This document shows, piece by piece, positions 12,566-16,991 of a DNA stretch of 17,464 nt (the first letter of the stretch is position 1; each line of letters opens with the position of its first letter). The notes beneath the pieces are model-generated. The model did no database searches. It worked only from the letters and a program-made list of their open reading frames with translations, and was not told the origin of the DNA. The position numbers and the translations under genes are program-made. The stretch is from Candidatus Jordarchaeia archaeon (GTDB lineage: Archaea; Asgardarchaeota; Jordiarchaeia; Jordiarchaeales; Jordiarchaeaceae): NCBI GenBank assembly GCA_029856435.1, contig JAHQXB010000027.1:1-17464 (forward strand). The letters run 5' to 3'.

Positions 12566-13000
12566 CTACCATTTTAGTTTTCTCATTTTTTCTGAGTCTA
12601 GAGTGCCGTAGTGCTTGTAGAGGTTCATTATGAAGGATAGGGCGATTGCTACTACGCAGCCTCCCAGAACAATGGATATTATCACTATGACGTGTGCCAG
12701 GGGGTCAACGTAGAGCGGTGTGTAGAGGTTGGCTGTGATGAAGTAGGATCCAAATAGGGTCAGGGTGAGGTTGTCTGTTATTCCCATGCTGCTGAAGAAG
12801 GAGAAGATGTCTAAGGCCCACTGGGTGAACCATCGGTATGCTGAGAAGGCTATGAAGTTTAGGTGGGCTGCTGCTACCAGTATTTCGATGCCGATTACCA
12901 GTTTTATGACGTTTCTCTTGGTTGTGACGCAGTATAGTCCAACTCCGTAGAGTATGGCTGCGCCTACCAAATAAACTGTGGGTGATACGGGTAGTGCCAT
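12566..13000 (-). CDS. nuoK: NuoK/MrpC-family three-TM subunit, 144 aa
   Basis: KRNVIKLVIGIEIL carries the NuoK-type Glu; DPLAHVIVIISIVLGG and YKHYGTLD are MrpC-like. It overlaps the upstream gene (TAATG). Confidence 0.88.
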   Translation of the reverse strand: MALPVSPTVYLVGAAILYGVGLYCVTTKRNVIKLVIGIEILVAAAHLNFIAFSAYRWFTQWALDIFSFFSSMGITDNLTLTLFGSYFITANLYTPLYVDPLAHVIVIISIVLGGCVVAIALSFIMNLYKHYGTLDSEKMRKLKW

Positions 13001-13323
13001 TATTTTTCAACTCCCTTCTCTTCTTCGGTTTCTTCTCGGAGCATGATTGCTGCTCCGATTCCTGTGGCGACTAGCACTATGGCCAGTGTCATGGTGTCGA
13101 TAATCCTGTTTGACCAGAGGTATTGTCCTTCAAAGAATGCTATTTGCCACACTGCGGCTGTTGGTGTTGTGGCGTTTGCCATTGGTGGGAATAGTGATAG
13201 GTAGAAGGGGTAGAAGACTCCGGGGGTTAGCCAGAACACTTTTACTACTGTTGCTATGACGAATGCTGCTAGGATTATGCTTGCCAGAATTCTTGTGACT
13301 TTTATTATGGTTTCACTAACCAT
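13000..13323 (-). CDS. NuoJ C-terminal half / MbhE-like membrane subunit, 107 aa
   Basis: Two TM helices, with YLWSNRIIDTMTLAIVLVATGIGAAIMLR resembling the last helix of NuoJ/MbhE. It lies between the NuoJ N-terminal half and nuoK. Confidence 0.7.
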   Translation of the reverse strand: MVSETIIKVTRILASIILAAFVIATVVKVFWLTPGVFYPFYLSLFPPMANATTPTAAVWQIAFFEGQYLWSNRIIDTMTLAIVLVATGIGAAIMLREETEEEKGVEK

Positions 13324-13325
13324 TT

Positions 13326-13580
13326 TTACTCACTCTCGCGTGCTTCTTTGGTGAGGCTTACGGTGACTAGTAGAAGGACTACTATGGCTCCGGCATAGAT
13401 TAGCCACTGGAACACTGCCACCCAGGGAGCGTAGAGTAGGTAGAATAGGGCCCCTAAGACTACGTTCATCGCGGCGAATGAAATTACTGCATGATCTAGT
13501 CTTTTTAGTTCCACAGCGATTATTCCAAAAAGTATTGCTAGAGCTATGAGAGCCACGTGAACAATTGTAGGGTCAACCAT
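13326..13580 (-). CDS. nuoJ: NuoJ N-terminal half / MbhD-like (TM1-3), 84 aa
   Basis: NuoJ TM3 motif APWVAVFQWLIYAGAIVVL; GAGG RBS; first gene of the operon. Confidence 0.85.
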   Translation of the reverse strand: MVDPTIVHVALIALAILFGIIAVELKRLDHAVISFAAMNVVLGALFYLLYAPWVAVFQWLIYAGAIVVLLLVTVSLTKEARESE

Positions 13581-13833
13581 TCAAGTCGCCTCTCAAATCG
13601 AATTATCCGTCACTCACGTAATTTTGTTGTTTTTAAAACGTTTTAGTTTGGATTTAATGTTATATTTAACTCTTACGTGCCCAAGACCGTCGAGAATGGT
13701 CCAGAAAGAGATTAGTAACTGGAAAAATCGTTAAAATTCGGGAACCACATATTATTATAACAAAAATTTTAAAGTTAAACCCCAAAAAAAGTGTGACACT
13801 ACCAGCCTAGCTACCTGTTTTGGAAAATTTTCC

Positions 13834-13894
13834 TGAAGCATAGAAAAATGTTGTTTTAAGTCGCAAATCGGCTTTTGAAGCACAGAAAAATGCC
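13834..13894. repeat. Local 17-bp direct repeat TGAAGCAyAGAAAAATG, overlapping a dispersed repeat of about 43 bp
   Basis: Copies at 13834-13850 and 13876-13892 differ by one base. The stretch 13853-13894 also resembles 17259-17302. Confidence 0.5.
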
Positions 13895-13991
13895 TGTTTG
13901 GAGCCCGGAAAAGGAATATAAAATTTGGAAACAGCACCAAGAAGGGCTCCTTCAAGCCTCTACCCGTGCGGAAACTAATTAGTTTGTAAGG

Positions 13992-14068
13992 GCGGCACCA
14001 ACCTTGCGAGGTGGAGTGTTCCCTGCAGACCTCCATAAAGGGTTTTGTCTGCAGGTCATTACTGCCGC
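13992..14068 (-). promoter_or_regulatory. Eukaryote-like SECIS element in the selD 3' UTR
   Basis: RNA: GCGGCA-GUA-AUGA-CCUGCAGAC-AAAA-CCCUUUAUGGAG-GUCUGCAGG-GAA-...-UGCCGC. It shows helix I (6 bp), the AUGA/GA core, a perfect 9-bp helix II and apical unpaired As. It begins 1 nt after the selD stop. Confidence 0.9.
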
Positions 14069-14069
14069 T

Positions 14070-15125
14070 TTAAACTTCAAGTATTTCGGCCTTGCTGAAG
14101 TCTACTTTTCCAGACCCTTTACTAGTTTTTCCTATCTCGTAATGGGCTACAGATCTCCTGTCAAGTTCGTGTTCCAAATTCTCCTTTAAATCACTTGGGA
14201 CAAAGAGAATCATGCCGCCGGCGGTCTCCGCTGATTCGCCGGATTGCAGACCATAGCCGAAGAGATCCGAAATTTGTAAGGTGCCTTTAATGATGGGTAG
14301 GGTATGAATGGTGATGTTTACTTTGCTGCTTTCCGCTATTCCCTGTGTGTGGCCGAGTAAGCCGAAGCCTGTGATATCGGTGGATGCGTGGGGTTTAACT
14401 ATCCTCATGGCCTCGGCCACGGGTTTATTCGAGGTGGTCATCAATTTAATTCCTTTTTCGACCATTTCTTCTGCCTCCTTTCTTGAAACCAGCCCAAGGA
14501 TTTGTTCTGCCACGGCGGCGTCTCGTAATCCTCTGTAGACAGCCATTGCGGGTTGTGTGCCTAAGGGTTTGGTGAGTATAATTATATCTCCGGGTTGTGC
14601 GTCTTTGTGGGTTACTATCTGGTCGGGGTGGGCTATTCCTGAGGCTACGCCTCCTACTAGGGGCCAGGGGTTTATTATGGTGTGTCCCCCGGTAATGGTT
14701 GTGGTGCCCAGCTCACCTATCAAGTCGTTTATTCCCCGTAGCATTTCCTCAGCCATCTTGAGGGGCATGTTTTCAGGGATTCCCAGTATTGCAAGAAAGC
14801 TCACTACATCGGTTCCACCTATGGCTTATGCATGTAAATCGGGATGATTTACATTGTACACATCGTTGGTGACGTTTACTGCGGCAATTTTGCCCTGAAT
14901 GTAGGGATCGTCAACATTGGGGGTTATGAAGTCCACAGTTTCTATGAGCACCAAGTCGCTTCGAATTTTTATAACTGCTGCGTCCTCTCCGATTCCTCCC
15001 ACAACTCTGCCTGAGGGGTCCTTTTTAACGCCCACCTTTTCCAAGAGGCTAATAAGCTCTGTTTGGGGCAACTTACAGGATCATCCGTGAAGAGTTACTG
15101 CCTTCGTTAACCTATAATCCTCCAG
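14070..15125 (-). CDS. selD: Selenophosphate synthetase, Sec-containing and interrupted; join(complement 14856..15125, 14070..14825), 341 aa after removing 30 nt
   Basis: Reconstructed protein MEDYRLTKAVTLHG-U-SCKLPQTEL...EDAAV...ETVDFITPNVDDPYIQGKIAAVNVTNDVY|AIGGTDVVSFLAILG...GGHT...PGDIIILTKPLGT...DITGFGLLGH...ETAGG. UGA is at 15081-15083 and the probable CTG start at 15123-15125, 8 nt after GGAGGTG. The two track ORFs (14826..15071 and 14070..14804) share one frame. Confidence 0.93.
14826..14855 (-). other. Candidate 30-nt archaeal mRNA intron with a relaxed bulge-helix-bulge motif
   Basis: The insert AATGTAAATCATCCCGATTTACATGCATAA sits between codons TAC (Y90) and GCC (A91). It has a 9-bp stem AUGUAAAUC/GAUUUACAU, a 4-bp central helix GUGU/GCAU, and 3-nt bulges AC^A and AA^G. 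It ends in an in-frame TAA. Confidence 0.8.
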
Positions 15126-15413
15126 GCTTTTTACACCTCCAGTCTTATATTTGCGTAGGCTACGCTAGTTAAGGAAACGTTTCTAAAACTTAAAAAAATA
15201 TTGAAAAAGCAGAAAACAATTTTGGAAAAGCTTATGAGCTGGTTTGGCCTCGCTGGCCCTGTTATTCTCCTTCTTCTCACCTTTTTTTAAGGTGGAAACT
15301 GTAGTTTCTGCCAGTTTGCGGCCGGAAAAAGAAATAATGCATATTTTGAGGATATAGTAGTGTAGAGCAGTTGTATTTAGGTAGGGATTGTTTCGGAGGC
15401 TTGGAGTGAAGGT

Positions 15414-16502
15414 TTATTCTAGTGCTTGGCTTATTACTTTTGCGAAATCTTCGGGGGTTACTCCGGGGGTTTCTATTTCTTCTTTTTCGTAAAAGGAGCG
15501 AATTTTTCTGGTTATTTCCTCCCTGTTGGTTGGGATGCCAGTGAGGCTTTTCTCCAATTCCGCTAGCTTGTCCTGGGGATATATCCAGAAGTCTCCGCTA
15601 AACATTATTTCTTTTATGTGGTTTTCCTCGATTATCATGGTGACTCTTATTAGTCCTCCGGGTGCCTTATAGGCGGACTCAGAGACAGAGGTGGTTCCCG
15701 AAATTTTGACCCGCCTAGCTAAGTCTGGGTGGCGCATATATGAGAGGTTAAGCCATTCCTGGGATTCGTATTTCTTCCTTAACTCCTTCATGATTTCCTG
15801 CTCGCTGCTGGTCAGTTCTCCCAGTCTTAATTTTATGTTTAGGGTTTCCTCGTAGTTTTTTATGAGTAGGGATTTTATTTTTTCCGGGGGAACCTCGTGT
15901 CCCAGTTCTCTTTTTATGGTGGTCATTCTCTCCTCAAGGCTTTTTGCCACTTTGTCTCGGAACTTTTCGCTGGGAACCTTTAGAACCTTCACCATCATTT
16001 CAAAGTTGAAGTCCAAGATGATGTTTCCAGTTAAAATGTTCACCACATTATCCACGGTGCCCGCTCCGTTTCCACTAATTTTTCTGCCACCCACCTCAAT
16101 GTCGTTTATGGGCTTGTACTGTGCAGGTATGCCCAAATCCTGATAAGTTTTTGTGGGCGCCTCCAAAAGCTTCCTGAAAAAGTCCTTTATGGAAACCGGA
16201 ACCTTGGGGCTTTTTTTACCCACAATTATCTGGTAGAAAAGCTGACCCCGATCCAAGTACACTGCCCCTCCCCCCAAGATTCTTCGAACAACAGGTATAC
16301 CCTGAGACTTGCAGAAGGAGTAATCCACTTCTTTTTCCAACTCCTGGTGATATCCAATACAGACCAATGGACTTTCTGGATAGCAGAGAATCAAAGTGTC
16401 AGGAACCAAATCCTTGCTCCTAGCTACTGCCACGGCCTCGTAAATGATTTGGGTGTCAACCGGAGGAAGGGCGCCTAAGTCTAAAAGCCTCCACTCCTCC
16501 AC
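15414..16502 (-). CDS. lplA: Lipoate-protein ligase (LplA with fused C-terminal accessory domain), about 362 aa
   Basis: Motifs RRILGGGAVYLD, NDIEVGGRKISGNG, and C-terminal KAPGGLIRV...FSGDF. The start is probably GTG 16502 (7 nt after GGAGGTG) rather than TTG 16508. Confidence 0.92.
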   Translation of the reverse strand: MEEWRLLDLGALPPVDTQIIYEAVAVARSKDLVPDTLILCYPESPLVCIGYHQELEKEVDYSFCKSQGIPVVRRILGGGAVYLDRGQLFYQIIVGKKSPKVPVSIKDFFRKLLEAPTKTYQDLGIPAQYKPINDIEVGGRKISGNGAGTVDNVVNILTGNIILDFNFEMMVKVLKVPSEKFRDKVAKSLEERMTTIKRELGHEVPPEKIKSLLIKNYEETLNIKLRLGELTSSEQEIMKELRKKYESQEWLNLSYMRHPDLARRVKISGTTSVSESAYKAPGGLIRVTMIIEENHIKEIMFSGDFWIYPQDKLAELEKSLTGIPTNREEITRKIRSFYEKEEIETPGVTPEDFAKVISQALE

Positions 16503-16544
16503 GCCCAAGCACCTCCAAAACTAAACTAAAAGACCCCAGATTCT

Positions 16545-16991
16545 CTACTTTAGACGCTCTTTTATCTCCTTATTTATCCAGTCCTTTATGGCACTCCCAG
16601 TGACAAGTTTAGATAATTCCGCCTCTAGGTTATCTGTCGGCTTAACCACCAGCAACCACCCTTTCCCATAGGGATCCTCGTTGATGATAGTAGGTTTCTT
16701 TTTAAGTTCGGGATTCACCTCCAAGATGGTGCCACTAATAGGCGCCTTAAGGGGGCCCACCCACTTCCCTGTTTCTATAGAGCCAAAGCTTTTATCCACC
16801 TCTATGGTTTTTCCCTCGGGTTTAAGCCTCACGAACAGAATTTTGCCCGCAGTTGCCTGGCCGAAGTCATCGAACCCAATTCTAGCCTTTTCATCCTCCA
16901 CCTTGACCCAACAGTGATCATTGTGATAGTATAAGTCCTCAGGAAGTTTAACAGTTACCTTTTCACCTTCCAAATCAAACGTTACATCCAC
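16545..16991 (-). CDS. gcvH: Glycine cleavage H-family lipoyl carrier (GcvH/LbpA-like), 148 aa
   Basis: Motifs LYYHNDHCWVKVE, lipoyl-Lys in SIETGKWVGPLKAPISG, and NEDPYGKGWL; GAGGTG RBS before the GTG start. Confidence 0.9.
   Translation of the reverse strand: MDVTFDLEGEKVTVKLPEDLYYHNDHCWVKVEDEKARIGFDDFGQATAGKILFVRLKPEGKTIEVDKSFGSIETGKWVGPLKAPISGTILEVNPELKKKPTIINEDPYGKGWLLVVKPTDNLEAELSKLVTGSAIKDWINKEIKERLK

Follow-up and report, generated by a model that had tools for sequence, protein, structure and literature searches.

Besides tRNA and rRNA, the only archaeal RNA reported to carry an endonuclease-spliced intron was for long the cbf5 pre-mRNA, to which an intron in a Haloferax 5′ untranslated region (UTR) was added in 2020 (PMC7714728). 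The cbf5 introns of Crenarchaeota (Desulfurococcales and Sulfolobales) are short, interrupt coding sequence at a position conserved within the clade, form bulge-helix-bulge (BHB)-like motifs that are often relaxed, and depend on a heterotetrameric splicing endonuclease, EndA; the enzyme cuts between the second and third bulge residues (PMC2738675). The Haloferax volcanii case, a BHB intron in the 5′ UTR of HVO_1309 mRNA, has been confirmed, both in vivo and in vitro, to be cleaved by the tRNA splicing endonuclease (PMC7714728). In the literature we searched, cbf5 is the only archaeal coding sequence with such an intron. Here we describe a candidate from an Asgard archaeon. We analysed 17,464 nucleotides (nt) of Candidatus Jordarchaeia archaeon (contig JAHQXB010000027.1, assembly GCA_029856435.1; the window), in which the selenium-pathway gene selD is interrupted by 30 nt. 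These very probably form a relaxed HBh′ splicing-endonuclease intron in the selD pre-mRNA, cut by EndA, sealed by the ligase RtcB and inherited from the ancestor of Jordarchaeales.

The interruption divides selD without removing any of it.

14856-15125, minus strand: selD exon 1, recognized by translation and by its match to positions 4-90 of NCBIfam NF010705 (E 3e-29); it holds the selenocysteine (Sec) codon and ends in NDVY.
15081-15083, minus strand: in-frame TGA, assigned as the Sec codon of the motif HG-U-SCKL from translation and conservation.
14826-14855, minus strand: the 30-nt intron, the exact gap between the exon matches; each of the 18 Jordarchaeales sequences has a homologous insert, 30-34 nt long.
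14070-14825, minus strand: selD exon 2, 251 amino acids starting AIGGTD and matching NF010705 positions 91-341 (E 1.5e-73); its stop codon is TAA at 14072-14070.

Exactly 30 nt separate SelD profile positions 90 and 91, with zero residues lost. The 291-bit cut-off of NF010705 is passed only by the joined exons, which score 102 (exon 1) and 247.7 bits (exon 2) when taken singly. Exon 1 encodes TLHG-U-SCKL and, at its end, NVTNDVY; exon 2 opens with AIGGTDVV. The N-terminal active-site loop of SelD, G-(U/C)-x-C-K, is present as HG-U-SCKL and kept in relatives, and the TGA codon is retained in all 14 relatives inspected. A profile search found a single selD in the genome, which is 97.8% complete. 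No second intact copy emerged: the other matches were weak, unrelated PurM-fold sequences (E 1e-6 or worse).

RNA spanning the interruption has the geometry of a BHB-type splicing substrate.

14858-14861, minus strand: 5′ strand of the central helix H, GUGU, in the exon; its partner is GCAU at 14831-14828.
14855-14857, minus strand: bulge 1, ACA, a 3-nt bulge in the local minimum-energy fold; the 5′ splice site is predicted between 14856 and 14855.
14832-14854, minus strand: intron hairpin h′, a 9-bp stem AUGUAAAUC/GAUUUACAU with the loop AUCCC (14845-14841), from folds and covariation.
14828-14831, minus strand: 3′ strand of the central helix H, GCAU, in the intron, from pairing in 18 sequences.
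14825-14827, minus strand: bulge or loop 2, AAG, without a conserved outer helix; the 3′ splice site is predicted between 14826 and 14825.

Read from the minus strand, the RNA runs GAU GUG UAC ^ A AUGUAAAUC AUCCC GAUUUACAU GCAU AA ^ GCC AUA GGU GGA, where carets mark the predicted cuts, and the insert ends in an in-frame UAA. The structure as drawn has a free energy of -9.9 kcal/mol. The minimum-energy fold of 90 nt contains the 9-bp hairpin, and that of 54 nt contains the central helix, the 3-nt ACA bulge and the hairpin together. In BHB-type fashion, the 4-bp central helix GUGU/GCAU joins the exon to the 3′ end of the intron, and a 3-nt bulge, ACA or AUA, lies between it and an intron hairpin that measures 8-9 bp across sequences. 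The canonical hBHBh′ form has a further, exon-exon helix. Here its candidate strands, UCACC/GGUGG, are paired in 62% of cells in the alignment of relatives and show no covariation, and that alignment offers no alternative conserved pairing. Because the outer helix is not conserved, we class the motif as relaxed HBh′ (bulge-helix-loop).

Structure and protein conservation select the same junction. The published cut rule places cuts at AC^A and GCAU-AA^G, which would yield GUGUAC^GCC, encode VY^A and join profile positions 90 and 91. Shifting the excision by -1, -2 or -3 creates GUG UAA, whereas +1 and +2 turn the conserved Ala into Thr and Asn; only the zero shift both avoids a stop codon and retains that Ala. 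A BHB with a hairpin stem of at least 7 bp arises in this genome at about 1.6e-5 per position and length (5259 matches in 7.08 Mb over about 47 lengths), and the selD motif coincides exactly with the junction that the protein alignment requires. An earlier note, written from the letters of this stretch, had reported the 30-nt interruption with its terminal in-frame TAA, the 9-bp stem, the 4-bp central helix and two 3-nt bulges, and had derived VY^AIGG by the same shift arithmetic. Its coordinates hold against the adjoining profile positions, its structure recurs in the folds and in the pairing of 18 sequences, and its arithmetic is correct as read. Its caveat that the exon-side helix is interrupted was also well placed, given the 62% pairing, and the broad-specificity endonuclease that it called for fits the EndA predicted below.

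The insert is shared across Jordarchaeales and absent from the other lineages compared. We compared selD from 10 assessable Jordarchaeales genomes (six from the window's genus and four from a second family) and from eight metagenome contigs obtained via exon-2 proteins. The genus includes 'Ca. Freyarchaeota SRVP19_Freyarchaeia-1', with the closed chromosome CP147778, and 'Ca. Jordarchaeum madagascariense'; an eleventh genome of the class, in which a contig end cuts selD, lies outside the presence count. All 18 sequences, the closed chromosome among them, carry an insert at the identical codon boundary. No insert interrupts this site in five further Asgard selD genes or in about 57 selD genes of Bathyarchaeia, Atabeyarchaeia and other groups, all of which are continuous here. 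Fifteen sequences have a 30-nt insert; the remaining three have inserts of 31, 32 or 34 nt, and the 34-nt form contains no stop codon. Uniform ribosomal read-through is incompatible with these lengths and with the stop-free form, so the insert must be absent from the translated message.

Base pairing is maintained while sequence changes. Across the 18-sequence alignment, 97% of cells are paired overall, 95.7% in the hairpin and 100% in the central helix; sliding the 3′ partners by 1-3 columns lowers pairing to 14-59%. The central helix has just two variants, one G.U to G-C and one U.G to U-A, each turning a wobble into a Watson-Crick pair. Six of the nine hairpin pairs are altered on both sides, as in AUGUAAAUC/GAUUUACAU, GCGUAGCC/GGCUACGC, ACACAGCC/GGCUGUGU and GCGCAACC/GGGUUGCGC. 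The 5-nt loop differs in almost every species, and the stems are near-invariant within the genus despite synonymous divergence (dS) above 1. Bulge 2 reads AAG in 17 sequences and AGG in one.

Substitution patterns indicate that both exons are under strong purifying selection. Among 10 genus-level sequences, pairwise ratios of nonsynonymous to synonymous substitution (dN/dS) are 0.02-0.13 for exon 1 and 0.05-0.16 for exon 2, with dS saturated (>1). Over the first 20 codons of exon 2, which precede every possible start codon, the proportion of nonsynonymous differences (pN) is 0-0.08 against 0.07-0.79 for synonymous ones (pS). Searches for spliced products returned none. Among 606 relatives, proteins at least 51% identical to exon 2 are all 232-250 amino acids long, and no protein joining the exons and no assembled spliced transcript was seen. 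Matches of 301-318 amino acids at about 50% identity to exon 2 proved to be continuous, intronless SelD proteins whose sequences are clearly unlike those of Jordarchaeales. The spliced-junction pattern AAYGAYGTGTAYGCNATAGGNG had two matches among JGI metagenome contigs, neither encoding SelD. A search of sequencing runs for RNA that contains selD listed none.

The host encodes enzymes suited to a relaxed motif. Its genome has two EndA paralogs, at G000:C104:1178-1756 and G000:C64:5764-6357, both on the plus strand. The alpha paralog carries the Tyr/His/Lys triad, and its best alignment, which runs end to end, is to 3P1Z_B, the catalytic subunit of Aeropyrum pernix; the alignment spans the Crenarchaea-specific loop (IRKPK vs VEKPR), with the K44-equivalent lysine conserved. 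In the beta paralog, Thr replaces the catalytic His. These features predict an (alpha-beta)2 enzyme with a broad-specificity loop, in line with the (alpha-beta)2 architecture described for Asgard EndA, whose L1 loop permits relaxed HBh′ substrates (PMC5829648). RtcB is encoded as well (579 bits), giving the host both an EndA for relaxed motifs and a ligase. In the window's genus, 92-95% of tRNA genes bear introns, many at non-canonical positions (PMC11291895).

We propose the following route from transcript to enzyme. In the transcript, exon GUGU would pair with intron GCAU to form the 4-bp central helix, on which the 9-bp intron hairpin would stack, thereby defining the 3-nt ACA bulge. The (alpha-beta)2 EndA would then cut after the second base of this bulge and after the AA that follows GCAU, and RtcB would ligate GUGUAC to GCC. 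The predicted spliced junction joins GAUGUGUAY directly to GCNAUAGG, and the corresponding junction peptide would span VTNDVYAIGGTDVV. The continuous mRNA would encode NDVY-AIGG, with Sec inserted at UGA under the direction of a 3′ element resembling a selenocysteine insertion sequence (SECIS). We infer both that cleavage and ligation occur and that they occur at these bonds. A single origin, in the last ancestor shared by all Jordarchaeales, is probable. The intron is presumably kept because it is rarely lost precisely and because any change that blocks its splicing would destroy the genome's one selD.

Several observations weigh against this interpretation. The motif is non-canonical, and with the outer exon helix only 62% paired the 3′ cut site lies in an open loop. 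Two G.U, one A-U and one G-C pair make for a weak central helix, which is missing from the 90-nt minimum-energy fold, although the 54-nt fold contains it. Most compensatory changes divide the two families, so few of them are independent events, and the shuffle control overstates support where sequences are related. Finally, the 5′ end of the selD gene model is uncertain, because the genus sequences hold no in-frame ATG, GTG or TTG between the upstream stop and the Sec codon (window 15084-15160, minus strand).

Four other explanations deserve consideration. One is a split gene, in which the hairpin and stop codon end a Sec-containing N-terminal peptide of about 99 amino acids, a C-terminal protein of 244-251 amino acids is made from an internal start, and the pieces assemble. 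Gene callers indeed annotate exon 2 alone, as a 232-250 amino acid protein, in every relative, and codon 8 of exon 2 in this genome is an in-frame GUG preceded, 10 nt upstream, by GGUGG. That Shine-Dalgarno-like sequence is not conserved, however: congeneric species have GGCGC. Members of the second family have no start codon until 19 codons further downstream, and the codons before it (A-K/M-G-A-T-E-I-V/A-G-F-L-A) are nonetheless conserved with synonymous changes. The break would also fall within one fold unit, between adjacent profile positions, and the covarying hairpin and invariant GUGU/GCAU pairing would go unexplained; we consider a split gene very unlikely. Programmed translational bypass, in which the ribosome hops 30-34 nt aided by the hairpin and stop codon, has a superficial precedent in phage T4 gene 60. 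Like selD, gene 60 has a short untranslatable gap with a hairpin in its coding sequence (in selD with a stop codon in most variants). The T4 gap stays in the mRNA, and its bypass needs matched take-off and landing codons. No such match exists in selD, where across all 18 sequences UAC or UAU precedes the gap and the gap ends in CAUAA, CACAA or CAUAG. The stop sits at the 3′ end of the gap instead of directly following the take-off codon, and it is missing from the 34-nt variant. Conservation falls on the BHB geometry (4-bp helix, A-rich 3-nt bulge, stacked hairpin), which other genes of this genome show too. We regard bypass as highly improbable.

The insert might instead be removed from RNA by a route other than EndA and RtcB, or at slightly displaced bonds with an identical joined product. 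The selD 3′ site lies outside any closed bulge, the exact bonds are not deducible from DNA alone, and rtcB itself appears to need splicing in this genus, which makes the source of the first ligase molecules puzzling. Set against this, EndA and RtcB are both encoded and form, to our knowledge, the only archaeal pathway for BHB-type geometry, and the zero-shift junction alone retains the conserved Ala without a stop; there is only a slight chance that another route or other bonds are used. The last alternative is a dead gene or an artefact, namely a pseudogene into which a small palindrome was inserted, or an error of sequencing or assembly. An in-frame stop in an essential motif and annotations limited to a C-terminal fragment invite this view. 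The comparative data effectively refute it: the insert is present in 18 independent assemblies, including the closed chromosome CP147778, whose topology, its authors state, was validated by long reads (PMC11291895), and dN/dS of 0.02-0.16 at saturated dS in both exons speaks against the plain pseudogene that the earlier note had named as a possible refutation. This selD is also the only one in a genome that retains SepSecS, the Sec codon and the SECIS-like element. Nor is the insert a repeat element, as its hairpin sequence occurs once in the genome. EndA- and RtcB-dependent splicing remains the interpretation we favour, and the earlier note's proposal of a spliced protein-coding intron gains support from the class-wide insert, its lengths, its covariation, selection on the exons and the enzymes encoded. 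The note proposed checking relatives for the intron and for compensatory stem changes, and both are found.

Inserts of the same geometry interrupt other genes of this genome. We scanned both strands for a 4-bp helix, a 3-nt bulge, an adjacent hairpin, a 4-nt return strand and 2 nt, keeping sites whose excision would join two open frames interrupted in the unspliced DNA. With stems of at least 6 bp, the first scan gave 644 candidates, mostly spurious, and tightened scans gave short lists. A constraint to A-rich bulges, combined with open reading frame and coding-score filters, left 13 candidates in the real genome and 0 in the reversed genome; some of the longer ones are clearly adjacent genes. 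Besides selD, which the scan also returned, the main candidates are as follows.

G000:C73:22783-22813, minus strand: cbf5 insert, 31 nt, canonical hBHBh′; excision gives GHAGTL^DPKV and makes the DKCLD domain and TruB_N positions 17-149 contiguous (Pfam).
G000:C73:11339-11368, minus strand: gatE insert, 30 nt, containing TAG and TAA, flanked by GatB_N positions 2-41 and 47-237 (Pfam).
G000:C136:1384-1411, minus strand: hypD insert, 28 nt; excision restores ICG^THE (Pfam).
G000:C93:1547-1576, minus strand: rtcB insert, 30 nt; excision gives LPD^AHQGYG, with helix CCCG/CGGG and bulges ACA and AAG.
G000:C24:15011-15038, minus strand: unassigned candidate, 28 nt, with a perfect helix ACGG/CCGU and AAA bulges; excision fuses two long frames with good coding scores.

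Bulges are A-rich (ANA, AAN) in all five genes, selD, cbf5, gatE, hypD and rtcB. Local folds of the latter four contain the outer helix, unlike that of selD. The cbf5 insert is the predicted Asgard counterpart of the crenarchaeal cbf5 intron. Unspliced gatE has stop codons within its profile match. The rtcB insert was first noticed as a TGA within a Pfam match and then recovered by a relaxed second scan; it is 29-30 nt long, with hairpin changes, in six of six genus genomes and absent from the four sister-family genomes. If it is an intron, the enzyme thought to seal such introns needs splicing of its own mRNA. The unassigned candidate has no Pfam match on either side. A gatB candidate was rejected, as gatB is intact in another frame, and candidates next to nurA and at a CoA-transferase gene appear to be neighbouring genes.

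The selD gene carries its own selenocysteine signals.

13992-14068, minus strand: SECIS-like element of eukaryotic type in the 3′ UTR, identified from its fold and by comparison with the description in PMC11227280.

The element has its AUGA at 14059-14056 and its GA at 14021-14020, together with a 9-bp helix, AAAA as apical motif and a second, small hairpin, and it matches the account of Asgard SECIS-like elements in PMC11227280. Seventeen relatives keep both the AUGA...AAA...GA pattern and the helices, the latter with covariation. Rfam gave no family for the selD 3′ UTR (window 13800-14080) at E up to 10 and none for the window at gathering thresholds. The genome encodes SepSecS. A whole-genome search with Rfam RF01852 found no tRNA-Sec; the gene may be interrupted by an intron like most tRNA genes of the lineage, or may be unassembled.

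The 5′ end of selD has a conserved layout. In 10 of 10 genus sequences GGAGGTG is followed, after 8 nt, by CTG-GAG (L-E-x-Y-R). In the sister family, TTA stands at the matching position and an ATG comes five codons further downstream. The start codon may be non-canonical. Most genus members also have a small hairpin, AGCGU...ACGCU (window ~15150-15175, minus strand), between a TATA-like TTTTTAAG box and the selD Shine-Dalgarno sequence; its loop is variable and its stem partly variable among genus members, and it may be a leader element. Upstream of selD (window 15414-16991, minus strand) lie open reading frames that resemble, by eye, lipoate-protein ligase (364 amino acids) and glycine-cleavage H protein (148 amino acids). 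Downstream (window 12566-13580, minus strand) are small hydrophobic frames. Gene calls on related contigs put LplA and Oxidored_q3 family genes in matching places, which indicates that relatives retain the neighbourhood.

These results bear on how Jordarchaeales genomes are read. The selD case adds a predicted intron of this kind from an Asgard archaeon, in a selenium-pathway gene that is essential and present once; the intron has been retained since the class ancestor, and it is one of several in the genome, one of them in the gene for the RNA ligase. Because selD is called as a truncated 232-250 amino acid protein in every Jordarchaeales genome, pathway reconstructions and selenoproteome surveys mis-score it; the lineage needs intron-aware annotation. 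As judged from sequence comparison, splicing of protein genes by the tRNA machinery would be no crenarchaeal oddity but common in a close relative of eukaryotes, which offers a concrete system for studying how introns in mRNA can be tolerated, and can spread, where no spliceosome exists. The earlier note held that the intron makes selenium activation depend on the tRNA-splicing machinery. If the intron is spliced this is trivially true; a coupling specific to selD is weakened by the mini-introns of cbf5, gatE, hypD and rtcB. A dedicated regulatory role is possible but unsupported, and since many housekeeping genes share the feature, none specific to selD is indicated. We also entertain, as a speculation more likely wrong than right, that EndA- and RtcB-dependent mRNA splicing is a routine and possibly regulated layer of expression in Jordarchaeia/Freyarchaeia, acting on dozens of housekeeping mRNAs including selD, cbf5, gatE, hypD and, in a self-dependent loop, rtcB. 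Were it so, splicing efficiency would gate selenoprotein synthesis and other pathways, and the closest relatives of eukaryotes would hold a counterpart or forerunner of HAC1/XBP1-type mRNA splicing.

The predicted selD intron can be set beside several described systems. From the same lineage come the non-canonical and multiple tRNA introns of Freyarchaeia and Atabeyarchaeia, which are of the same size class and presumably processed by the same enzymes in cells that handle very many BHB sites; unlike the selD intron, they lie in tRNA genes (PMC11291895; bioRxiv 10.64898/2026.10.13.758758). A term search of those two papers found no mention of protein-coding introns, and the second lacks the word 'mRNA'; the word 'intron' is absent from two Asgard selenoproteome papers. 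Our literature searches found no paper on a selD intron, of which the earlier note knew no description either, or on Asgard mRNA BHB introns.

The crenarchaeal cbf5 case shares with selD a short coding intron, a BHB-like motif that is often relaxed, the cut rule, a heterotetrameric EndA and a clade-conserved position. The two differ in gene, selD being a selenoprotein gene, and in phylum, and splicing was shown by cDNA for cbf5 whereas it is predicted here; the Asgard genome, moreover, has a predicted cbf5 intron of its own and several others. HVO_1309 mRNA is likewise a substrate of the tRNA splicing endonuclease, as selD mRNA is predicted to be. Unlike selD, HVO_1309 carries its intron in an untranslated leader, where a homodimeric EndA acts on a canonical motif and no reading frame is interrupted. 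The eukaryotic HAC1 and XBP1 mRNAs offer a more distant parallel. IRE1 cleaves them at stem-loop sites with 7-nt loops, RtcB or Trl1 ligates the products, and the XBP1 intron is 26 nt long. They resemble selD, as interpreted here, in having a very short mRNA intron that is removed independently of the spliceosome, in being joined by a tRNA ligase and in needing intron removal for the downstream frame; they differ in that IRE1 is the nuclease, the sites are 7-nt loops instead of a BHB, and splicing serves as a regulated stress switch.

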